Of a stretch of 64,000 nucleotides of DNA, positions 42,320 to 54,580 are shown one piece after another. Position 1 is the stretch's first letter; each line of letters opens with the position of its first letter. A model generated the notes under the pieces. It made no database searches and was not told where the DNA came from. It was given only the letters and a program-made list of their open reading frames with translations. This stretch comes from an uncultured bacterium (GTDB taxonomy: Bacteria; CAYUVA01). Where the stretch lies: contig CAYUVA010000016.1 of NCBI GenBank assembly GCA_964448115.1, forward strand, positions 1 to 64,000, written 5' to 3'. The position numbers and the translations under genes were made by a program.

Positions 42320-44092
42320 ATGAGATTCGATATTGATACTGTAAGACATTCCCTATCCCACATAATGGCGGATGCCTTTAAAAGCATCTGTCCTGACTGC
42401 AAACTCGGCATCGGTCCCGCCACCGATGAAGGATTCTACTACGACTTCTACATCCCAGAGGGCTATCCCTTCTCAGCAGAGGTGCTTGAAAAGGTAACCG
42501 ACAAGATGAAGCAACTACTTAAGTGTGATATCCGCTTCGAGCACAATGAAATAAGCATCGCAGAAGCCAAAAAGCTCTTTGCTGATGAACCATTCAAGCT
42601 AGAGTTGATCGAGGATCTTGAGGCATCTGGTGAAGAAAAGGTCAGCACATATCGAAGTGGGGATTTTATCGATCTCTGCGCTGGACCTCATGTTGATTCA
42701 ACAGCGGATCTTCGTAATATCGCCTGGCGATTGGATCGCATTGCTGGAGCCTACTGGCGGGGGAATGAGAAAAGACCGATGTTGCAACGAATCTATGCCC
42801 TCGCCTTCGAGACCAAAGATGATCTGAAGGACTATATCAGAAGACGCGAGGAGGCTGCTAAAAGAGACCACCGCAAGATCGGGGCTGAAATGGAGCTTTT
42901 CACCAGCTCTCCATTGGTGGGCAGAGGACTACCCCTGCTTCTCCCCAAGGGTGCGACCATAAGGCGGATCCTGGAGCGCTTCATCGTCGATGAGGAGATA
43001 GCAAGGGGATACCAGCATGTCTATACTCCTTCGCTGGGAAGAAAGGATCTCTATGTCCAGAGCGGTCACTGGGAGCACTACAAGGAGAACATGTACCCGA
43101 TCATGGATATCGATGGGGTTGAATATGTGCTTCCCCCCATGACCTGTCCGCATCACTTCATGATATATAACTCAAAACCACGCTCCTACCGGGATCTCCC
43201 CATGCGTTTGGCTGAGATCTCTGCGCAATACCGCAAGGAACAATCCGGCGAGCTTAGCGGATTGCTCAGGGTGATGTGCTTCCATCTGGCTGATGCGCAT
43301 ATACTGTGCCGCCAGGATCAGCTTGTGGAAGAATTCCGCGAGGTAGTGAATCTTATCGAGTATGTAATGCGCTGCATTGGCATCACCGATGCCATCTCGT
43401 ATCGAGCATCGCTCAGAGACCAGGATAAGGATAAGTACTACGATGATGATAAGATGTGGGAGCAGGGAGAGTCGATGCTTCTTGAGATACTCGATGAGTT
43501 CGGGGTCGAGTATGTCATCGCTAAGGGAGAAGCAGCCTTCTATGGACCTAAGCTCGATGTGCAGATGCATAATGTCATGGGTAAGGAGGAGACGATAATA
43601 ACCGTGCAGATCGACTTTTGCCTGCCGGAGCGCTTCGATCTCACCTATACGGATAGCGGTGGCGATGAACGAAGACCGATCGCTATACACCGAAGCTCCA
43701 TCGGAAGCATAGAGCGCACCATTGCATTCCTGATAGAGCACCACGAGGGTGCATTCCCCCTTTGGCTCGCCCCGGTGCAAATTAGACTACTTACCATTAC
43801 TGATGATCATGTACCGTATGCCAGGCAGGCAATGCATCGGATGCAGAGAGCTGGCATTCGAGTAGAGCTTGATGATCGCAATGAAAAGATAGGAAAAAAG
43901 CTGCGTGAAGCAAGGCTACAACGAATACCTTACATTGGCATAATCGGATCAAAGGAGGTCGAGAGCGAGACAATAATGATCCGCAATCGTAACAGCGGCA
44001 ATCAGGCTGCCATCGCCGTTCAGGAAATAATTGAGGCGATCATAAAGGAGAACTCCGAACATTCACTGGATCTATCTCTTGCCAACCAGTAA
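42320..44092 (+). CDS. thrS: Threonine--tRNA ligase (short form lacking the TGS domain)
   Basis: RHSLSHIMA, GFYYDF, DLCAGPHV, GAYWRG, RDHRKIG, PMTCPHH, GEAAFYGPKLD and FPLWLAPVQ. Confidence 0.96.
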   Translation: MRFDIDTVRHSLSHIMADAFKSICPDCKLGIGPATDEGFYYDFYIPEGYPFSAEVLEKVTDKMKQLLKCDIRFEHNEISIAEAKKLFADEPFKLELIEDLEASGEEKVSTYRSGDFIDLCAGPHVDSTADLRNIAWRLDRIAGAYWRGNEKRPMLQRIYALAFETKDDLKDYIRRREEAAKRDHRKIGAEMELFTSSPLVGRGLPLLLPKGATIRRILERFIVDEEIARGYQHVYTPSLGRKDLYVQSGHWEHYKENMYPIMDIDGVEYVLPPMTCPHHFMIYNSKPRSYRDLPMRLAEISAQYRKEQSGELSGLLRVMCFHLADAHILCRQDQLVEEFREVVNLIEYVMRCIGITDAISYRASLRDQDKDKYYDDDKMWEQGESMLLEILDEFGVEYVIAKGEAAFYGPKLDVQMHNVMGKEETIITVQIDFCLPERFDLTYTDSGGDERRPIAIHRSSIGSIERTIAFLIEHHEGAFPLWLAPVQIRLLTITDDHVPYARQAMHRMQRAGIRVELDDRNEKIGKKLREARLQRIPYIGIIGSKEVESETIMIRNRNSGNQAAIAVQEIIEAIIKENSEHSLDLSLANQ

Positions 44093-44701: not shown

Positions 44702-46408
44702 TTGATCTTGGGAAAAGTAAAGCGAGATCTTCCACTGGTAGTCCAGAGCGACAATACCATCCTCGTCGAGGTTGACAATCCCCACTACGAGGGAGCCAGG
44801 GATGGCTTAAACCGCTTTGCTGAGCTAGTCAAAAGCCCGGAACACATACATACCTATCGCCTAACCCCCCTTTCATTGTGGAATGCAGCCTCGGCTGGTA
44901 TGACCGAAAAGCAGATCCTGGACTTCCTGGAGGAATATAATAAGTATGAGCTGCCCCCTATTATAAAGACCTTCATTGCAGACCATGTCCACCGCTATGG
45001 CAGGGTCAAGCTGGTAAAGTCAGATAACGGTGCGCTCCATCTGGTGGTCGATGATCCTGCCATCCTAATCGAGATGCTGCAAAGCGAGAAGGTTACACCT
45101 TATATTCGCAACCGCATCTCCGATCGCGAGATCGAGGTTGACCCCCATTTCAGAGGCTATCTTAAACAAGCCCTCATCAAGATAGGATACCCGGTCGAGG
45201 ATCTGGCAGGTTACACCAAGGGCGCACCATTAAAGATATCGCTCCGCAAAATGACACTTAGCGGTAAGCCATTCAACCTGAGGCATTACCAGAGAGATGC
45301 GGTTGCAGCATTCTATGCAGGTGGCTCGATAAAAGGGGGCAGTGGAGTGATCGTGCTTCCCTGCGGAGCGGGTAAGACCATGGTTGGGCTTGGTGTAATG
45401 GAAAAACTTCAAGCGCAGACCTTGATTCTAGCAACAACCACCGTGGCGGTTCGTCAATGGATCGAGGAGCTGCTCGATAAAACCACGCTAACCAAGCAAG
45501 ATATCGGTGAATATACCGGGGACAAAAAGCAAATCAAGCCTGTTACCATCAGCTCTTACCATATCCTGACTCACCGCAAGCGCAAGGAGCAAGGCTTTAA
45601 GCACTTCGAGATCTTCAATACCCGCGACTGGGGATTGATCATCTACGATGAGGTTCATATCGTGCCTGCACCCATATTCCGGATAACCGCGGAGATACAG
45701 ACCAGAAGAAGGCTAGGGCTCACCGCCACTTTAATCCGCGAGGATGGCAGGGAAGACGAGGTGTTCAGCTTAATAGGTCCCAAGCACTACGATGTTCCCT
45801 GGAAGGTGCTGGAGAGCCAGGGCTGGATAGCAAATGCCATCTGCCATGAAATAAGGATCTCGATGCCCACGGATACCCGTCTTGATTATGTTGCAGCCAG
45901 GAAGAAATCGAAGTTCCGCATCGCCAGCGAGAATATTAGAAAACTAACCTACATGCAGCACATAATCGAGAGACATCGTGGTGATAGAGTCCTGATCATC
46001 GGACAGTACATAGCTCAGCTCAAGGAGACAGCAAAGCTGCTCAAAGCGCCACTTATCACCGGAGCTACTCCAAATGCACGAAGAGAACAGCTTTATAATA
46101 GATTCAGACGCGGAGAGATAAGGCTACTAGTGGTCTCCAAGGTGGCAAACTTCGCCATCGACCTGCCGGATGCCAATGTTGCCATACAAATATCCGGCAC
46201 CTTTGGCTCCAGGCAGGAGGAGGCTCAACGGCTGGGGCGAGTGCTAAGACCGAAGTCGGATGCATCACCCGCCTATTTCTACACCCTGGTATCGAAGGAC
46301 ACTACCGAACAGCAGTTTGCGATGAAAAGACAGCTCTTTCTTACCGAACAGGGATACAAGTACCTGATAATGGATGAGAATCAATTCATGGAATGTCAAA
46401 AACAATAG
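44702..46408 (+). CDS. XPB/Ssl2-type DNA repair helicase
   Basis: PLVVQSD, FAELVKSPEHIHTYRLTPLSLWNA, LPCGAGKT, DEVH, LGLTATLIREDG, SKVANFAIDLP and QRLGRVLRPK. Confidence 0.94.
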   Translation: MILGKVKRDLPLVVQSDNTILVEVDNPHYEGARDGLNRFAELVKSPEHIHTYRLTPLSLWNAASAGMTEKQILDFLEEYNKYELPPIIKTFIADHVHRYGRVKLVKSDNGALHLVVDDPAILIEMLQSEKVTPYIRNRISDREIEVDPHFRGYLKQALIKIGYPVEDLAGYTKGAPLKISLRKMTLSGKPFNLRHYQRDAVAAFYAGGSIKGGSGVIVLPCGAGKTMVGLGVMEKLQAQTLILATTTVAVRQWIEELLDKTTLTKQDIGEYTGDKKQIKPVTISSYHILTHRKRKEQGFKHFEIFNTRDWGLIIYDEVHIVPAPIFRITAEIQTRRRLGLTATLIREDGREDEVFSLIGPKHYDVPWKVLESQGWIANAICHEIRISMPTDTRLDYVAARKKSKFRIASENIRKLTYMQHIIERHRGDRVLIIGQYIAQLKETAKLLKAPLITGATPNARREQLYNRFRRGEIRLLVVSKVANFAIDLPDANVAIQISGTFGSRQEEAQRLGRVLRPKSDASPAYFYTLVSKDTTEQQFAMKRQLFLTEQGYKYLIMDENQFMECQKQ

Positions 46409-46414
46409 AATGCT

Positions 46415-48715
46415 ATGATTGAATATTTTCATAAATTAAACAGACAACAGCTCATCAAGATCGCAGCCAACTGGGGGATCGAGGATGTCGATGCCTCGGA
46501 TAACGATGAAAAAATAATCAGGAGGCTACAATGCATCCTAAAGGATCCAAAGGCTTTTAATTATATCCTGACAAGGTTGCCGGAAAGCTATCAAGATACG
46601 ATCGCTTATATAATCGGCAACGGGAACCAGGTACTATACGAGGAGCTACTCTGGAATCACTTCAAGGGAGACGAGGGGAGCTTTAGCGAGTTCGAGGAGG
46701 CAAATCAAAGGTTTTCACTAGCTTTTCGCCAGGAGTTGCAAAGCAGAAACGATGTTTATCCCTATTACCTTGTCCCCAAGGAGGTAGCAAGACATATCAA
46801 GCTCCCGGAAAAGTATATGAACCTGCTCGGTTTTTTTCTCCAGATAGCTCCCTTGAGCATCCTCAGAAATATCATATCCCACATCCCGGGCGCCGAGTTC
46901 ACTACTAACAACAAGTTGCTACTAGCAAAGCAAATCAAGTCATACCTGCTCAATCCAACCACGCTTCGTGAATTCATATTGCAACTTCCGGCCACTGAAA
47001 GAATGGTGGTGGAGATCCTGGTCAAGCATGATGGCACAATCAAGGTCGAACAGGTGCATACCCTGTGTACTCAACAGGGAATTGCAAAAGGGCACTGCGA
47101 ATCAGCTATTCAGCAGCTAGCTTATGTAAAAAGTATCCTTTTCATCGCTGAAAGCGCTTCTAAAGGCTCCCATAGTCAAAAATATCTTGTTCTTCCAAAA
47201 GATATAATGAGTATTATCAAGGAAGGCTTTGCGGAAAAAAACTCTCTTAACATGCCGATCAAGATACCGTTGGATGAGGTTGAGCTTAAGGAATATCAAG
47301 CTTGGGATAAATTCGAGATCCTGCAGGATCTCATGACGCTTATTGGACTGGTAAATGCCCAGGAACCAGCGCCACTCAAGGTCGGTGGCTTGAACAAGAC
47401 TTTTCTGAAGCAGGTCAAACCGCTGCTCAGGGTTTCTGATGATCAACATTACATCTCTTTTCTGGAGATCTTCGCTGTGGATGGAGGATTTATGAAGATC
47501 CAAGGGGGAAGGTTTCGGGTCGAGAGCTCCAAGCTGGCTCTGTTCGAGGATAAAGTAACTTTATATCAGCTTATGTTCCAGAAGTGGCTAACAAGTTACA
47601 ACTGGAACGAGATCTACGCCAATCCTGACATACGAAACATCACTAACCGTAACCTGACCCAACACACGGTGATGGAGATAAGAAGCATAATCCTCGACCT
47701 TATTTCAAAGCTATCCAAGGACTTTTACTACATCTACAATGCCTGGATCAGCAAGTACATATATCCAGTTAAGCGTTTGGAGGATCTGATGCAGGATGCC
47801 ACCATCCTCCCCCAGGCGCGTAGCAATCCCAAGGTCTCACTGAGCAGGGTACTTACTAACCTCTTCGAGGGCGTACTGGTCTGGATGGGGGTCATCGGTA
47901 AGGGCATTACACAACGAAATGTCTCCGTATTCGCATTGACCGAGCTGGGGGACGCTATAATCAGCGATGACTTTAAGGCTGCGGTTGAAAAACTTCCTCA
48001 ACATGGCTTTGTTGATACCTTCACTCCCCAGCCCAATATGGAGATCATGGCTCCCTTGGAGATCGAGCCGAAGATATTTTTTATGCTTTGTAAGATCGCT
48101 GAGCTAAAGTCTGCCAGTGAGGTCTTCATCTTCGAGCTAAATCGCCATACGCTGATGAATGCTCTCAAAAGCGGAATCAATGGTGAGAGAATACTTGATT
48201 TTCTTCATAAGCATAGCACGATACCGCTTCCTGAAAATACCGAGGTTCTGGTTAAAGAGGTAGCAGGAAGATATGGCGAGATCAGCATTATCCCTACTGC
48301 CTCCATCATCAAGGCTAGTGATCCGATGATAATAGAGGAGATAATGGTGCAAGGTGAGTTTGCCAAGAAAATAAAAATGCGTCTTGGAGAAGACATTGCT
48401 CTGCTGAAAGGAAATCAGGACTTCGAGGAGTTAATTCACAGCCTGGAAGAGGCAGGCTATCATCCCAGATTGGTTGATGATCATCACTCGAAAAGAAGTA
48501 AGACTAACCAAGTAAATCTGACCGATGAGGAGACAAAAGAGATAATCAAGTCCTTGGAGATTCTTAAATATATCTCCAAGGAGCTTAAGATAGATGCCCA
48601 TGCAAAGGAGATCGATGGGTTGATGAACAAGCTGAATAAGAGCCTCATCTACGAGATAAACGACGAGATCGCAACCATCACTAACCTGCTTAAGGTCTTT
48701 CTGTTTAAGGAGTAG
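46415..48715 (+). CDS. Helicase-associated (Helicase_C_3-type) domain protein, XPB partner
   Basis: C-terminal QPNMEIMAP..FELNRHTLMNALKSG..ILDFLHKHS..PLPEN..RYG resembles the XPB N-terminal domain; 6 nt downstream of XPB. Confidence 0.75.
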   Translation: MIEYFHKLNRQQLIKIAANWGIEDVDASDNDEKIIRRLQCILKDPKAFNYILTRLPESYQDTIAYIIGNGNQVLYEELLWNHFKGDEGSFSEFEEANQRFSLAFRQELQSRNDVYPYYLVPKEVARHIKLPEKYMNLLGFFLQIAPLSILRNIISHIPGAEFTTNNKLLLAKQIKSYLLNPTTLREFILQLPATERMVVEILVKHDGTIKVEQVHTLCTQQGIAKGHCESAIQQLAYVKSILFIAESASKGSHSQKYLVLPKDIMSIIKEGFAEKNSLNMPIKIPLDEVELKEYQAWDKFEILQDLMTLIGLVNAQEPAPLKVGGLNKTFLKQVKPLLRVSDDQHYISFLEIFAVDGGFMKIQGGRFRVESSKLALFEDKVTLYQLMFQKWLTSYNWNEIYANPDIRNITNRNLTQHTVMEIRSIILDLISKLSKDFYYIYNAWISKYIYPVKRLEDLMQDATILPQARSNPKVSLSRVLTNLFEGVLVWMGVIGKGITQRNVSVFALTELGDAIISDDFKAAVEKLPQHGFVDTFTPQPNMEIMAPLEIEPKIFFMLCKIAELKSASEVFIFELNRHTLMNALKSGINGERILDFLHKHSTIPLPENTEVLVKEVAGRYGEISIIPTASIIKASDPMIIEEIMVQGEFAKKIKMRLGEDIALLKGNQDFEELIHSLEEAGYHPRLVDDHHSKRSKTNQVNLTDEETKEIIKSLEILKYISKELKIDAHAKEIDGLMNKLNKSLIYEINDEIATITNLLKVFLFKE

Positions 48716-49613
48716 CTGTTACTATCACAGGTCCGCTTAAGGCATGTAGGTTCATCTCAAAATCATCAACTGTAATAAAGTAACTGCCCGGTCGTGTGAT
48801 CTTATTGTCCTTTAAGGTGATCGAACCTTTGGAATCTGTGTCGAATTTAATGGAATGCAAGGTGAGCATTTTTATCTGATCCCAAACCTTCTGGCCGGTA
48901 TTTGAATCAAGAATGCTTATATCAACGGTTTGGCTGTATTCTTCTGCAATATTGTTGAATCTATCTAAGGCTCGAATGGTTATATTAAAAGGCTCACCAA
49001 CCAAAAGCTTCAAAGGTGTACCTATCTCCAGCCTGTGAATTTGGGTTGGCTTGACGATCACGGTAAGATCGCCCTTTACCCTCTTATACTGTCCATCACC
49101 GTTGGCATCAGTCAACAGTATGAATTCATAAACGCCTGCTGAGGTCGGTATTGGAAAGTAACTCGTGTCATAAATATCGGCACCAAGGTATATATAGAGT
49201 TTCTCACCTTCCATCAGCTCGCGATCCTGTAATATGAAGCAAGCTGCTGTATAATCGGCATTATCGTAAACCCTGAAGAAATAAGGCTCAAACCTCGCCT
49301 TTTCCTCTACCTCGATCTCAGTCAAGCCAGGCTTCTTTACGGTCTCAAACAAGAAGGGATACTGGAGGTCTAGCTTGTTATAGTATTCATCGCTGAGCCT
49401 AACAATGATCCTCCCGCCGCGTTTAATTCCCCCCTCTCCAACGGTGTAGTCTATCCTCCAGAATCCCTGCTCCCCGGCAGTTATCTCCTTTTCCCCCCAA
49501 AGCTTTACGCTTCCGGAGCCGTCCCGTGGATTGTCCTGTTTGCTGTTGCAGGCTAGTATAAATAATGAAAGTATGAAAAATAATATTTCCAATTTATAAA
49601 TTATATTTATCAT
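48705..49613 (-). CDS. Hypothetical lipoprotein
   Basis: Signal peptide with lipobox LFILA-C; beta-rich body. Function not recognised. Confidence 0.65.
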   Translation of the reverse strand: MINIIYKLEILFFILSLFILACNSKQDNPRDGSGSVKLWGEKEITAGEQGFWRIDYTVGEGGIKRGGRIIVRLSDEYYNKLDLQYPFLFETVKKPGLTEIEVEEKARFEPYFFRVYDNADYTAACFILQDRELMEGEKLYIYLGADIYDTSYFPIPTSAGVYEFILLTDANGDGQYKRVKGDLTVIVKPTQIHRLEIGTPLKLLVGEPFNITIRALDRFNNIAEEYSQTVDISILDSNTGQKVWDQIKMLTLHSIKFDTDSKGSITLKDNKITRPGSYFITVDDFEMNLHALSGPVIVTATP

Positions 49614-49628
49614 TTTATAAAAAGTAAG

Positions 49629-51602
49629 TTAGAATCTGTTAAAGTAGCCCTTTAATAAAACTATCATCCTTGATTCCACGACTGCCCTGAGCATCTTATC
49701 AATCATCTGGTAGGGCGGATTGGCTATGAAATCGATATCAGAATCGATAAACGGGATACCTAGTCCATCCTTTTTATCACGAATAAAGGCAAGGACCTTC
49801 CTGATCGCCAGGCTCGCTTCTCCTCTATCACCGGGATCATGTAAGCTCTTGTATCTTTTCCATCGTTCATCATCACCCAACACTTGCTTTAGCTTTTCAG
49901 CATAAGTAGTTCTGAACTCCAGCGCCTGTAAGGAACAGATAAGCTCCACCGAAAGAGTTTTTGCCGTGTTGAAGATAACCTGTCTCAGGTGCCTGGCTGC
50001 ATTGGTCGCCATTGCAACATGATCCTCAGTGTTAGCCGAGGTAGGTATCGAATCGACCGAAGATGGGTGGGAAAGCACCTTGTTTTCTGCCACCAACGAT
50101 GCAGCTAAGTACTGGAAGATCATGAACCCAGAGTTTATGCCACCAGCCTCTCCGGCGAGATTTGCCGGCAGCCCGCGATTATGATCGGGGTCCAAAAGCA
50201 GTTGCACTCGCCGCTCTGAGATATTTGCAAGCTCGGAGACCGCAATCTTGAGATAATCGGCTGCCATACCGATCTGCTCACCATGGAAATTGGCTCCAGA
50301 ATAGACCTGCCAATTACAGACCGGTTCATTCATTCTTTTATCCAGGGGGTCATAATCGGTCATATCAGCTAATATAATAGGATTGTCCGTAACCGAGTTT
50401 ATCTCCACCTCGATGATCTCCCTGGCATGTCTGGCTGCGGTCAAACATGATCCATGAACCTGGGGCATGGCTCTAACCGAGTAATCATCTTGTACCTGAA
50501 AGGCAGTAGCGCTGCGGTTCACCAGACCACTTCCCTCAACAAGGCTCGTTATCTCGGCAGCGCAATCGACCTGTCCTTTATGGGGTCGAAGTCCGTGCAG
50601 CGAGGACTCTAAAGAACGGGTAATTCCACCGATCGCTTGCAGGGTAATGGCACCTGCCAGGTTGGCGTGATGAATAAGCCGAAGGCTATCGAATACTGCA
50701 ATTGCTGTTATGGCAGTGCATACCGCGGTGCCATTGGTCAGGGCAATCCCTTCCTTTGGAGCTAGCTTAGGTAAAAGGACTTCTTTATACTTGTCTGGGT
50801 GCTTATAAGATAAATTTTTTAGGTAATCGGGAGGTTGCAGATGGTTTAAGCCTACCCGTCGCAGAGCCTCGCCACCGGGCATTGTTGCTCCACGGCGCTC
50901 CTTTGCATCATCCCAGGTGGCTCCAGGATATAACGGATAATCCCCTTCCACCCAAGCCTCACCAAGCCCTAAAATAACCAAACCGATGTGCGACAATGGA
51001 CAAAGATCGCCTGATGAACCAACGCTCCCTTGGGATGGAACCCAAGGATGGACTCGACGGTTAAGCATATCGGCAAGCATCTTTATAAGCTGTACTCTCA
51101 CACCAGAATATCCGTAAATGAAGGTCTGCAAGCGTAGCAGCATGGCAGCCCGCACTACCTCGGTTGGCAAAGCCGGGCCAGTGCCCACGGCATGGCTCAA
51201 TATCAGGTTCTCCGAGATGCGACAGGCATCCAAATAGCTCTCCAGCGGTTTATCGCGGTTATTGCCGAAGCCGGTATTTACCCCGTATATCAGATTGAGT
51301 CGGTTGGACCGTTTTATCTCCTCATAATCCTTCTCATCTTTTTCCTTAAGTTTATCTAGTTTCAGGGCAACTTTTTGTCCCTTAAGTACAGCCTTGTGGA
51401 TATATTCTGCACTATGCTTGCAAAGCTCAAGGCTATCAGGGTCCAATGCAACAGCAGCGATAATGCCATCATCATCACCGCTGCTGACCGCGATAAGCTT
51501 CTCAAGGGTGAGTCTCGATTCGGGCTTGTGGCTTATAATGATCGGATTATCTATGCTAACTCCATTGATCATCAGTGTGCTTGGAGCTTTGGTCGAACTC
51601 AT
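49629..51602 (-). CDS. hutH: Histidine ammonia-lyase family (MIO-dependent) enzyme with insertions
   Basis: YGVNTGFG, NLILSHAVGTG (the SH pair typical of HAL), GSVGSSGDL, KEGIALTNGT, QDDYSVR..PQVHG, NSVTDNP, GANFHG and EDHV.M. Confidence 0.8.
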   Translation of the reverse strand: MSSTKAPSTLMINGVSIDNPIIISHKPESRLTLEKLIAVSSGDDDGIIAAVALDPDSLELCKHSAEYIHKAVLKGQKVALKLDKLKEKDEKDYEEIKRSNRLNLIYGVNTGFGNNRDKPLESYLDACRISENLILSHAVGTGPALPTEVVRAAMLLRLQTFIYGYSGVRVQLIKMLADMLNRRVHPWVPSQGSVGSSGDLCPLSHIGLVILGLGEAWVEGDYPLYPGATWDDAKERRGATMPGGEALRRVGLNHLQPPDYLKNLSYKHPDKYKEVLLPKLAPKEGIALTNGTAVCTAITAIAVFDSLRLIHHANLAGAITLQAIGGITRSLESSLHGLRPHKGQVDCAAEITSLVEGSGLVNRSATAFQVQDDYSVRAMPQVHGSCLTAARHAREIIEVEINSVTDNPIILADMTDYDPLDKRMNEPVCNWQVYSGANFHGEQIGMAADYLKIAVSELANISERRVQLLLDPDHNRGLPANLAGEAGGINSGFMIFQYLAASLVAENKVLSHPSSVDSIPTSANTEDHVAMATNAARHLRQVIFNTAKTLSVELICSLQALEFRTTYAEKLKQVLGDDERWKRYKSLHDPGDRGEASLAIRKVLAFIRDKKDGLGIPFIDSDIDFIANPPYQMIDKMLRAVVESRMIVLLKGYFNRF

Positions 51603-51614
51603 GATTCCTTCCCA

Positions 51615-53111
51615 TCACTCATAGCGTTCAAGTATCCGCCTTACCTGCTTGACCATCTCTGCTTGTGGAACTGAGATCTGTGAGGGCTGTTGTTTAAGCC
51701 ATTGATCTCGATCCTTGATCTCTTGAGACAATATTCTGCCTAATTGCAAATCTTTTATGGTAACCTTGCCTGCCTCGAATTCATTCGAGCCGGCGATGAC
51801 CACGGCAACCAGGTCTCTTTGATCTGCATATTTAAGTTGTTTTACGAATCCGCCGGAACCGATGTACATCTCAGCACATATCCCGGCTCTGCGCAGTTCA
51901 AAGGTCATCTTAGCGTAATCAGCGAGCCTCTCCCTATCCATCACGGTAACTAAAACAGGCTTGCTTTCTTTTGTTTGGTTGAATCTATCAAGAGTCATAA
52001 GCGCAGCAATAAGCCGATCCACTCCGATCGATGCGCCGGTAGCTGGCACCTTCTGTCCGGTAAAGCGCTGTACGAGATTATCATATCTTCCACCGCCGCC
52101 CACGCTACCGAATTGCTTTTTCTCTCCCTTTTCATCGACCACATCAAAGCAAAGCCGAGCCTCGAAAACAGCTCCCGTGTAGTAATCAAGCCCACGGACA
52201 ATGCTGGGATCGTAGATCACCTTATCTTCGCCATAACCAGTGGCTTCAAGCAGTTCATCTATCTGTGCAAGTTCCTGCAATCCCTCTCCCCCCACCTTGG
52301 AACCAGCGATCAACGGCTCTAGGCTCGCTATGAACGCCTTGCGTGAAGAGACATCTGCTCTAAGGTAAGCAATAACCTTATCGATCTGCTCGGTAGAAAG
52401 TCCGGCTCCTGGTGTAAAATCACCCGATTCATCGAGCCTACCCTTGCCGAGAAGCTCCATCACTCCATCAAGTCCGAGTCGATCCAACTTATCCATGGAG
52501 CGCATCACCGAAAGCCCCAAACTGGTAAGATCCCCTTGTGCATCCAGTCCTTTTATACCGGCTGCTTCCAGAACCCCATTGAGTATCTTCCGATTGTTGA
52601 CAGCGATTATATATTGATCGCTGGTCAGCCCAAGCTTAGCGAATGCATCGGATAAGACACAGCATACCTCTGCATCGGCTGCCGGTGATCTTGTACCAAC
52701 GCTGTCAATATCGAATTGTATGAACTCGCGAAACCGGCCAGGACCCGGTTTCTCCAGACGCCACACCGGGCTTACCTGATAGCGACGAAACGGCTTGGGG
52801 ATCTTTAAATAATTTGCTGCAACCATGCGAGAAAGTGGTGCTGTGAGATCATAGCGTAATGCTATCCATTCATCGCTATCGTCCTTGAACGAGAAAATGC
52901 CACCTTCGGGAGTATCGCTTTCTGGCAGGTATTTACCGAGCACTTCTACATACTCGATAGCGGGTGTGTCGTAAGGTACGAAGCCATAAAGCTCATAGAC
53001 GGTGCGAATGCTTTCTATTATCTCTCGACGGAGGATCAATTCTTGGGGGGTTATATCCCTGAAGCCCTTGGGAAGTCGTGGAACTGGTCTCGATTCCTTT
53101 TGAGAACTCAA
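51615..53111 (-). CDS. hisS: Histidine--tRNA ligase of the alphaproteobacterial/eukaryote-like type
   Basis: PKGFRD, LRYDLTAPL, WRLEKPGPGRFREFIQFD, RGLDYYTG, GGGRYD and SIGVDR, plus subtype segments LGKYLP and DKLDRLG..GKGRLDESGDFTPGAGL. TTG start after GAGG. Confidence 0.95.
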   Translation of the reverse strand: MSSQKESRPVPRLPKGFRDITPQELILRREIIESIRTVYELYGFVPYDTPAIEYVEVLGKYLPESDTPEGGIFSFKDDSDEWIALRYDLTAPLSRMVAANYLKIPKPFRRYQVSPVWRLEKPGPGRFREFIQFDIDSVGTRSPAADAEVCCVLSDAFAKLGLTSDQYIIAVNNRKILNGVLEAAGIKGLDAQGDLTSLGLSVMRSMDKLDRLGLDGVMELLGKGRLDESGDFTPGAGLSTEQIDKVIAYLRADVSSRKAFIASLEPLIAGSKVGGEGLQELAQIDELLEATGYGEDKVIYDPSIVRGLDYYTGAVFEARLCFDVVDEKGEKKQFGSVGGGGRYDNLVQRFTGQKVPATGASIGVDRLIAALMTLDRFNQTKESKPVLVTVMDRERLADYAKMTFELRRAGICAEMYIGSGGFVKQLKYADQRDLVAVVIAGSNEFEAGKVTIKDLQLGRILSQEIKDRDQWLKQQPSQISVPQAEMVKQVRRILERYE

Positions 53112-53181
53112 CTGTTTACCTCAGATCATTGGCTATGGTTTGGTCAACATGCTCGTTGTATGATACAAGCACTTTATTTCA

Positions 53182-53255
53182 TACAGCCGGGGGGATTCGA
53201 ACCCACGACCTCCTGATCCACAGTCAGGCGCTCTGACCAACTGAGCTACGGCTGC
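53182..53255 (-). tRNA. tRNA-His (GTG); no encoded G-1, G1:U72, A73, no encoded CCA
   Basis: Minus strand reads GCAGCCG TA GCTC AGTTGGTCA GAGC G CCTGA CTGTGGA TCAGG AGGTC GTGGG TTCGAAT CCCCC CGGCTGT A, a complete cloverleaf with anticodon GTG. Confidence 0.97.
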
Positions 53256-53389
53256 GTTCTCTATTATCATTTACAGAGAATTGAACAAATTGCAAGGGGT
53301 GGCAACCCGCTTAGTTCATTCATCTTTTGGATCACCGGTGATCCAGTTGTGCATGTAAGAATTCGTGTTGCCACTTCTTGGCTAAAAGA

Positions 53390-53461
53390 CTGGATTCCCG
53401 CCAGAGTTTACCCCGCACTTGATGCGGGGCGGGAATGACAGAAGGGGAGGCGGGAATGACA
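53390..53461 (-). repeat. Extended REP-like element plus partial extra unit
   Basis: CTGGATTCCCGCCAGAGTTTACCCCGCACTTGATGCGGGGCGGGAATGACA (53390-53440), then a second GGCGGGAATGACA (53449-53461). Confidence 0.9.
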
Positions 53462-53491
53462 AGATCTTCAAGCTATATCGATTGTTTTGTA

Positions 53492-54580
53492 TCATGAACT
53501 ACTTCGTAATTTTTTTATCACCTCGTATGCCTCGCTTCTAACAAAGACATCCTCGTCTCGCCGAAGATCGTGTAAGATCTTGAGGATGAGATCCCTGTCC
53601 ACATCAGATATCTCATCCAGGGATCTTATTATCATTCTCAGTATATCGGTATGCAGCCAGCTTTTATCTTTTGCGATCTGTGCATAGTATGCGAGGATCT
53701 GCTTGGGATATTTTGCTGCCAGTGCTTTTGTAGTATTGCTTGCTGCCATGGCTACATCCTTGATCTCGTCATACATCGCAGCGCGCAGCCGTCTTAAAAA
53801 GATAGGCAACTGGCTGGGAACGCAAAGGGCAATCGCTTCCAAAGCAGCCACCCTGACCTCCCAACGGTTGTCCTCTAATAGCCTACAAGTTAGCTCGGTA
53901 GTGAGATCTGGTTTGTAAGGAAAATACTTGGCTAGTGCTGGGGAGACCTTTTTTCTTATTGATGAATAGGGGCTTTTAGCCATGAACTCGCATAGATCGA
54001 CCGCTGCTTCAATCTCCAAGACTTGGCAGGCTCCCAGGCTAAGTATAGCCGCTTCCTTGAGCTTTATGCTGTTATCAAATGCCCATTCCTGAAGGGTCTC
54101 CAATACATCTTGGGGGATTATATTGGAGAAGCTGCCCATCACCTCAGCAACGAAGGTCCTCGCTGCTGGGTACTTGTCAAGCGCTATCCGCCTCAGAATT
54201 TCCTTTGACCTTTGGTACTCGAAGTGTCCAATTTTAGTTAAAGAGCTGCATATCAGCTGCCTGGTCAAAAGGTCATCATTCAGCAGATTTTGTAGGATCT
54301 CGAGCGAAGCCTTCGGATTGAGCGTTCCAACCTCAGCAAGAACCTCGATCAAGTGGTTTCGACTGTCATAGGAGATCTTCTTAAGTTCCTGAAGGTATTT
54401 TGCTGAAGAGCTGCTGTATTGATGCAGCATATCCCTGATCTTCTGCATAGGTAGCTGATCATGGTTCACTAGCTTTCCCTCCTCGCGCAGTTGTTGCTTG
54501 AGAAGCTCCAGCTCAAGAGATTCTTTAATCTTTTTTGATCGCTCAGCCATATCCTTACACGGTAAATAATCCATCAACAT
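53492..54580 (-). CDS. HEAT/ARM repeat protein
   Basis: Recurrent D....(V/A)R..A...L helical repeats (DNRWEVRVAALEAI, DEDVFVRSEA). Start position uncertain. Confidence 0.8.
   Translation of the reverse strand: MLMDYLPCKDMAERSKKIKESLELELLKQQLREEGKLVNHDQLPMQKIRDMLHQYSSSSAKYLQELKKISYDSRNHLIEVLAEVGTLNPKASLEILQNLLNDDLLTRQLICSSLTKIGHFEYQRSKEILRRIALDKYPAARTFVAEVMGSFSNIIPQDVLETLQEWAFDNSIKLKEAAILSLGACQVLEIEAAVDLCEFMAKSPYSSIRKKVSPALAKYFPYKPDLTTELTCRLLEDNRWEVRVAALEAIALCVPSQLPIFLRRLRAAMYDEIKDVAMAASNTTKALAAKYPKQILAYYAQIAKDKSWLHTDILRMIIRSLDEISDVDRDLILKILHDLRRDEDVFVRSEAYEVIKKLRSSS

Follow-up and report, generated by a model that had tools for sequence, protein, structure and literature searches.

In the canonical bacterial system of histidine tRNA identity, tRNA-His carries an encoded G at position -1 (G-1) that pairs with C73, RNase P cleaves the precursor at position -1, and histidyl-tRNA synthetase (HisRS) has a Gln in motif 2. 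This G-1 is regarded as an identity mark of tRNA-His that is nearly universal, and the papers cited here name only 'a small alpha-proteobacterial clade' as the bacterial exception. The closest described system is that of the RRCH alphaproteobacteria (Rhizobiales, Rhodobacterales, Caulobacterales and Hyphomonadaceae) and most SAR11 (PMC3064791, on Caulobacter crescentus). The literature assigns the G-1-less system in bacteria solely to an alphaproteobacterial subgroup and to the 8/4 tRNA-His of some of their phages, holds that its HisRS occurs 'only' in that subgroup and that the trait has a single origin, and debates whether this origin was a eukaryotic import or convergence (PMC3064791, PMC3937112, PMC9976931, PMC3245924, PMC5370408, PMC5389517, PMC7590224). 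Here a tRNA-His gene and the adjoining hisS gene are described from a stretch of 64,000 nt (positions 1 to 64,000 of contig CAYUVA010000016.1, assembly GCA_964448115.1; hereafter the window) of an uncultured bacterium of the lineage CAYUVA01. The window is contig C16 of genome G000 (3.98 Mb in 86 contigs, 94.45% complete, 0.46% contamination). As judged from sequence, this pair is a non-alphaproteobacterial addition to the known G-1-independent histidine identity system.

The tRNA-His(GUG) gene was the sole tRNA called by ARAGORN in the window and scored 71.4 bits against Rfam RF00005 (gathering score 29; Table 1). Its acceptor stem (GCAGCCG/CGGCUGU) was paired at all seven positions with G1:U72 as the first pair, its discriminator was A73 and the base at -1 was C; CCA was not encoded, since UGA comes right after A73. 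The D-loop AGUUGGUCA was 9 nt long with C as the extra base (20a), and position 37 was G. A first-pass annotation of the window had placed and described both genes correctly: C at -1, G1:U72 and A73 were all found on reading the sequence, and the spacer between the tRNA and hisS, which lie on the same strand, measured exactly 70 nt. Like the RRCH tRNA-His, the window tRNA lacks G-1 and has G1:U72, A73, a 9-nt D-loop and G37. With the canonical system of Escherichia coli and Thermus thermophilus it shares the GUG anticodon and the overall cloverleaf, and it differs in lacking G-1, in A73 for C73 and in U72 for C72.

The hisS product scored 385 bits against TIGR00442 (cut-off 286.75) and 137.8 bits against PF13393, so that it shares the superfamily of the canonical enzymes; its start codon was TTG with GAGG in front. 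In comparisons with HisRS of other organisms, T. thermophilus and E. coli gave 93-116 bits, human HisRS 181 bits and 6nhi 222 bits. Against plasmid records it was 49-52% identical to hisS of Rhodobacter, Paracoccus, Ruegeria and Sinorhizobium. The motif 2 loop read EKPGPGRF, identical to that of Caulobacter, Brevundimonas, Brucella, Sulfitobacter and SAR11, while Gln stood at that position in 6/6 canonical rows of the alignment and in four of five rows of an intermediate type. The Gln that reads G-1:C73 is absent from the motif 2 loop of RRCH HisRS, which has Gly instead (PMC3937112). The window enzyme differs from canonical HisRS by Gly-Pro for Gln-x in this loop and by three or four inserts.

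These inserts were shared with alphaproteobacterial enzymes to different depths. A 12-aa insert in the insertion domain (G.GR.D.SGD) was common to the whole clade of G-1-less HisRS, window included. In the anticodon-binding domain, about 25 inserted residues (...LGRILSQEIKDRDQWLKQQPSQISVP...) aligned with the alphaproteobacterial enzymes and with the whole G-1-less clade, and were absent from the five intermediate and six canonical rows of the alignment; this is presumably the insert described in alphaproteobacterial HisRS as unique among class IIa synthetases (PMC3064791). LGK[FY]LP occurred only in the narrower clade A described below, alphaproteobacteria included, as did an insert of 8 aa that precedes motif 3. 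The window HisRS has the segments LGKYLP and DKLDRLGLDGVMELLGKGRLDESGDFTPGAGL, and LGKFLPD and G.GRLDESG[DA][FY]TKGA.L were present in HisRS of Caulobacter, Brevundimonas, Brucella and Sulfitobacter; the statement in the first-pass annotation that LGKYLP and segments of the type DKLD..GRLDESGDFT.GAGL are shared with the alphaproteobacterial enzyme therefore holds.

Table 1. Positions of the tRNA-His gene, hisS and the adjoining lyase gene in the window
Feature	Position	Strand	Basis
tRNA-His(GUG), G-1-less type	53182..53255	-	ARAGORN; Rfam RF00005; sequence reading
tRNA-His position -1, C and not G	53256..53256	-	sequence reading; C unable to pair with A73
tRNA-hisS spacer, 70 nt, GAGG ribosome-binding site ahead of TTG start	53112..53181	-	sequence
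hisS, G-1-independent alphaproteobacterial-type ('clade A') HisRS, 498 aa	51615..53111	-	Pfam, NCBIfam, trees, motif alignment
histidine-ammonia-lyase-like gene, 657 aa, third block member	49629..51602	-	PF00221 512 bits; related loci

Within the sample, the type of tRNA-His covaried with the type of HisRS without exception. In the first 30 genomes sampled, tRNA-His was recovered from 26 (not from G002, G018, G023 and G025). Exactly the three genomes with a full-length match to the window HisRS (G016, G019 and G026; 44-56% identity) had A73 without G-1, and the remaining 23 of 23 control genomes, which have other HisRS types, had G-1, G1:C72 and C73; five of these controls had an 'intermediate' HisRS of 32-39% identity. 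An A73-anchored pattern gave a match in 95 of 301 genomes (300 sampled and G000), most of them long-arm tRNAs by string reading. Besides G000, 13 genomes had a tRNA-His-like match with A73, and all 13 had the window type of HisRS (39-56% identity); 13 of 300 is no estimate of prevalence, because the 300 were chosen as 'relatives' (all 'same domain') and not as random bacteria. The pattern misses some tRNA-His: it gave no match in the Caulobacter genome G302, and its first form missed locus L014.

In total 30 tRNA-His were recovered from genomes or loci with the window type of HisRS, and all 30 were non-canonical. Close kin in this set are not independent (G041 and G209 are congeneric, and L033 is almost identical to L035). 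A73 was found in 29 of them, the exception being L014, a WOR-3 metagenome-assembled genome (MAG) with G73, and 29 had no G at -1, the exception being the planctomycete L031, with G opposite A73 and G1:C72. The base at -1 was U in 22, C in 6 and A in 1. The first pair was G1:U72 in 25, G1:C72 in 4 and C1:G72 in 1 (G026); U72 is not universal in the G-1-less class, since a planctomycete subclade (L031, L033, L034 and L035) uses G1:C72. The tRNA-His of G026 (L148) combined C1:G72 with U-1 and A73. U-1 opposite A73, as in 22 of the 30 genes, could make an eighth pair; the window gene has C-1 instead.

In the whole of G000, ARAGORN called 46 tRNAs, of which one was tRNA-His, the window gene. PF13393 had a single match, hisS, therefore neither a second HisRS nor HisZ was present in the assembly. 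Thg1 and Thg1-like proteins (TLP; PF04446) had no match at E<=1 in this 94.45%-complete genome, and a class-A RNase P RNA was identified with 307 bits. The genome also encodes tRNA-Sec and a tRNA-Pro with the anticodon AGG. That tRNA-His and hisS stand within 70 nt of each other by chance is unlikely, because the only tRNA-His of 46 tRNAs adjoins the only hisS in 3.98 Mb and because the arrangement recurs in 20 of 46 related loci. A similar set of traits has been described for the Thg1-lacking protists Acanthamoeba castellanii and Trypanosoma brucei (PMC3561963, PMC4338351), which likewise have tRNA-His without G-1, no Thg1 and a non-canonical HisRS; unlike the window system these are eukaryotic and cytoplasmic, and the likeness is one of description. 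HisRS of the T. brucei and T. cruzi type (3hrk, 3hri) scored 136-147 bits, below human HisRS.

The first-pass annotation had supposed that the host is not alphaproteobacterial, and this was confirmed. The GTDB-based collection that was searched contained no further genome from the phylum of G000, for which reason G000 is not placed in the alphaproteobacteria, and all sampled relatives were of the 'same domain'. Its RpoB had at most 59-60% identity to named records (Methylomirabilota, Acidobacteriota, Entotheonellaceae), and the best identity to any sampled genome was 64% (G022). In a quick single-gene RpoB tree of 31 rows, G000 fell in a clade (96*) with Methylomirabilis, Acidobacteriota, G022 and the Coatesbacteria-like G041 and G304, was weakly sister to the latter two (81), and stood apart from the clade of SAR11, Caulobacter and a gammaproteobacterium (100*). 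The host thus differs from the RRCH bacteria as a phylum-level singleton.

Relatives of the window HisRS were found far beyond the alphaproteobacteria. Scanning named genomes with the single protein yielded 36 relatives of 41-58% identity, whose labels were Cloacimonadota, Coatesbacteria, Acidobacteriota, Pelagibacterales, Zixibacteria, Ignavibacteriales, WOR-3, Planctomycetota, Nitrospirota, Edwardsbacteria and others. A HisRS profile scan confirmed at least 599 stretches, and the best 80 were analysed (the alpha-dominated loci); nearly all of these 80 were labelled Rhizobiales, Rhodobacterales, Caulobacterales, Hyphomonadaceae or unclassified Alphaproteobacteria, with L085 and L107 as exceptions by label.

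In a careful HisRS tree (IQ-TREE, 56 rows, LG+C20+F+G4, rooted on six canonical enzymes), the G-1-less HisRS formed a clade of 45 rows (95/83). Within it, clade A (21 rows, 100/100) contained both the window HisRS and the alphaproteobacterial clade (13 rows, 100/98), which bears out the alphaproteobacterial type assigned in the first-pass annotation; the enzyme did not group with canonical HisRS. Unlike RRCH enzymes, the window HisRS branched outside the alphaproteobacterial clade, within a 19-row clade (97/96), and its sister was L002, a MAG labelled Cloacimonadota (79/89). The successive outgroups of the alphaproteobacterial clade were G099 (98/90), G296 (96/88), then the window with L002, and L003 with G041 (100/100); G099 and G296 were not alphaproteobacterial by RpoB. 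L107 and G016 branched further out than the 19-row clade within clade A. A quick tree of 75 rows agreed in topology. When all 32 non-alphaproteobacterial rows were forced into one clade, the tree became 87.1 log-likelihood units worse (p-AU 2.6e-6), a test weakened by the fact that the group was named after the tree was seen. The alphaproteobacterial HisRS is therefore nested, in the careful tree, inside the diversity of many phyla. The description of this HisRS as 'eukaryote-like' appears doubtful, because in these trees, made up of bacterial sequences only, the clade arises within a grade of bacterial enzymes from genomes that have retained G-1:C73 tRNAs.

The gene order of the window recurred in related loci. 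For 50 non-window loci with the window type of HisRS, the upstream side could be judged in 46 and the downstream side in 44. Of the 46, 20 had a co-oriented tRNA-His no more than 167 nt upstream of hisS, and in two further loci (L033, L035) it was about 2.3 kb upstream. On the downstream side, 12 of 44 loci had a co-oriented homologue of the window's lyase gene (32-53% identity) within 400 nt of hisS. All three genes were found together in L003, L004, L013, L014, L015, L034, G041, G209 and G033 as well as in the window, and thus in both subclades. The histidine ammonia-lyase (HAL)-like gene, which begins 12 nt past the hisS stop codon, is therefore a third member of a conserved block, beyond the two-gene unit of the first-pass annotation; that a HAL-like gene should be conserved next to hisS had not been expected. 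The HEAT-repeat gene upstream of the block in the window was conserved in none of the related loci. Unlike the window, none of the 80 alpha-dominated loci had tRNA-His within 1.5-kb flanks and none had the lyase downstream, with one weak lyase match upstream in L124. An exception inside the alphaproteobacterial clade was the SAR11 MAG L005, where the tRNA lay 12 nt upstream of hisS; its genome (G301) is flagged unpublished, and this linkage point and the tree rows need the depositors' permission before publication.

From these features a mechanism can be proposed. RNA-based RNase P would cut the pre-tRNA-His at the ordinary +1 site, because C-1 is unable to pair with A73; with cleavage at +1 the mature tRNA-His would begin at G1, without G-1, and CCA would be added post-transcriptionally. 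By homology to the Caulobacter enzyme, the window HisRS, in which the motif 2 Gln is missing and the anticodon-binding domain has an additional loop, would charge this tRNA through its GUG anticodon, U72 and A73; for Caulobacter HisRS the anticodon and U72 are required, A73 has a smaller effect and G-1 brings no gain (PMC3064791). The tRNA, hisS and the HAL-like gene probably form one transcript, since they are co-oriented, are separated by 70 and 12 nt, and have no terminator predicted between them. A terminator scan of the tRNA-hisS spacer predicted no terminator-like site; folding of this region gave a hairpin of 8 bp lacking a U-run, and the tRNA and spacer had a z-score of -0.85, which is not significant. 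Promoter and terminator scans around the block gave counts at or under shuffled expectation. For window positions 51400-53500, the sequencing runs listed were three DNA runs from a single study, with no RNA run among them. The tRNA-hisS core, or the block of three, would have moved or been kept together, with the partners mutually dependent, as suggested by the recurrence of the block in unrelated phyla and by its conflict with the RpoB tree. The alphaproteobacterial system would be a derived, unlinked offshoot of this wider family. Taken with all these steps, the two genes are very probably the single native histidine-decoding pair of G000, of the G-1-independent kind.

Several observations weigh against this explanation. 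Position 20a of the tRNA is C, where alphaproteobacterial G-1-less tRNA-His has U20a in its 9-nt D-loop (PMC3064791), and the T stem has one U50.C64 mismatch (a non-standard pair by Infernal). At 94.45% completeness, a second tRNA-His, HisRS or Thg1-like gene could be in the missing part of the genome. The tRNA-hisS linkage was missing in 26 of the 46 judgeable loci. As for movement of the block, its GC content was 47-51% against 48% for the genome; no integrase, transposase or other mobile hallmark was found among 12 neighbouring open reading frames (ORFs), and its neighbours were housekeeping genes (ispF, the XPB helicase pair, kor genes, a sigma factor and FtsW). A plasmid search gave 39 records, the 15 listed being large replicons of RRCH alphaproteobacteria at 49-52% identity, and no vehicle; a phage search gave 16 records with a best identity of 31.6%, none of this HisRS type. 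Moreover G041 and G304, the weak RpoB sisters of G000 (81), also carry a HisRS close to that of the window.

The incompleteness of the assembly (86 contigs), together with the fact that tRNA genes are often left unassembled, would leave room for a canonical G-1:C73 pair in the unassembled part, the window block being then an additional, orthogonal histidine pair. This is very improbable: G000 showed a single tRNA-His among its 46 tRNAs and one HisRS-family match, no credible C73 tRNA-His was found in any of 17 genomes with this system (G000 and 16 others; two pattern matches lacked a T stem), and no second HisRS type was detected at E<=1e-20 in the 13 sampled genomes with an A73 tRNA-His-like match. 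The cassette of the first-pass annotation is accordingly the sole histidine system found in G000 and not an extra pair, and it stands as a linked unit that recurs across phyla. It is likewise very improbable that the mature tRNA gains G-1 post-transcriptionally, through a Thg1-like or other enzyme or through aberrant RNase P cleavage, and that identity still depends on it. Eukaryotes do pair A73 with post-transcriptional addition of G-1, and Thg1-like proteins are sporadic in bacteria (PMC3245924). Against this stand the lack of a PF04446 match in G000, a HisRS that has lost the motif 2 Gln conserved in all six canonical rows and that holds the alphaproteobacterial-type inserts, and the observation that in Caulobacter addition of G-1 gave no better charging (PMC3064791). 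Aberrant upstream cleavage would yield C-1 and not G-1, because the base at this position is C. On all three counts raised in the first-pass annotation, the findings were consistent with a native G-1-independent pair: a host outside the alphaproteobacteria, no Thg1 match and a HisRS apart from canonical enzymes.

The history of the pair has to be considered separately for the family and for G000. The first-pass annotation had proposed a co-transferred unit; across the family co-transfer of the tRNA-hisS unit is supported by patchy distribution, incongruence of HisRS and RpoB and conserved linkage; for G000 itself no mark of recent acquisition was seen. G282 grouped with Myxococcota by RpoB (93, inside a 97* clade), yet its HisRS was nested in the Rhizobiales-type alphaproteobacterial clade, as if the system had passed from the alphaproteobacteria to another group. 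In G282 (L223, L239) the G-1-less tRNA-His lay in convergent orientation some 70 nt beyond hisS, and the hisS open frame ran 272 codons upstream of the match. The genome of L002 (G303), which holds the sister of the window HisRS, was in a different RpoB clade from G000, and the 3' acceptor strand and A73 of its tRNA-His were the same as in the window. MAGs labelled Coatesbacteria occurred in both HisRS subclades (L003 and L011; 75-row tree), and the genomes nearest to G000 by RpoB (G022 at 64%, and G003) had canonical tRNA-His.

These conflicts make it improbable that a large and old bacterial group possessed the linked G-1-less system from the outset and passed it on by purely vertical descent, with patchiness produced by loss. 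The unremarkable GC content and housekeeping context of the block agree with such descent, as does the weak sister position (81) of G000 to G041 and a Coatesbacteria MAG with a close HisRS and the full block. The split of HisRS and RpoB trees in G282 and in L002/G303, the placement of L003 and L011 in different HisRS subclades and the canonical tRNA-His of G022 and G003 speak against it. Because of the weak RpoB affinity to Coatesbacteria-like genomes with the same block, vertical descent may hold within the lineage of G000, and for G000 itself the two histories are indistinguishable with these data.

The enzyme clade and the tRNA type were found together under the labels Planctomycetota, Acidobacteriota, Zixibacteria, Nitrospirota, Ignavibacteriota, WOR-3, Coatesbacteria and Cloacimonadota as well as in G000, and this multi-phylum pattern is a more interesting result than the single element of the window. 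A joint reading, for which we would put the chances at about even, is that an old bacterial module of many phyla, ancestrally linked as tRNA-His-hisS with or without the HAL-like gene, was neither an alphaproteobacterial invention nor a eukaryotic import. The RRCH bacteria would have taken it over from a donor of this kind and separated the genes afterwards, at least one lineage (G282, Myxococcota-like by RpoB) would have re-acquired it from alphaproteobacteria, and the window would keep the linked form closest to the alphaproteobacterial enzymes; the block would spread or stay as a unit because neither partner works alone. As far as the literature searches reach, the multi-phylum spread, the nesting of the alphaproteobacterial enzymes and the recurrent tRNA-His-hisS-lyase block are unreported: no non-alphaproteobacterial bacterial holder and no tRNA-His-hisS linkage were found in the full-text literature, with most subscription journals outside this scope. 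The pattern changes the question of the source of the alphaproteobacterial system and weakens the trait as a clean alphaproteobacterial synapomorphy, for example in the debate on the placement of SAR11. It also offers a concrete route for swapping an identity rule, with tRNA and synthetase moving together, and provides genetic-code engineering with many compact natural tRNA/synthetase pairs for which orthogonality to E. coli is predicted.

The lyase of the block scored under both hutH cut-offs (TIGR01225, 483.2 against 539.15; NF006871, 492 against 524). Its best solved relatives were the histidine ammonia-lyases 7tqr (288 bits) and 1gkm of Pseudomonas putida (282), with tyrosine aminomutase at 195. 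The 4-methylideneimidazole-5-one (MIO) region read GSVGSSGD, with SSG in place of the ASG of the P. putida-type motif, and the substrate-selectivity position presumably holds Ser-His, as in HALs. At 657 aa it is longer than the solved HALs of about 500 aa, with an insert between residues about 222 and 279 and with N- and C-terminal extensions. A 302-aa ORF (48705-49613, minus strand) with a lipoprotein-like N-terminus and no Pfam match was found 15 nt past the lyase and may extend the operon. In G188 (L228/L229) the HisRS frame was 590 aa long and the match to the window enzyme was split into residues 5-254 and 275-497, so that a large insertion must lie midway along the protein.

Two other observations were made elsewhere in the window. 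A ThrRS-like class II synthetase of 590 aa (42320-44092, plus strand; tRNA_SAD, tRNA-synt_2b and HGTP_anticodon), shorter than typical bacterial ThrRS, was encoded 9 kb from hisS. Two adjacent genes related to XPB/RAD25-type helicases (44702-48715, plus strand) encoded proteins of 568 aa and then 766 aa, the former with ERCC3_RAD25_C, ResIII and Helicase_C_3 and the latter with Helicase_C_3 only.

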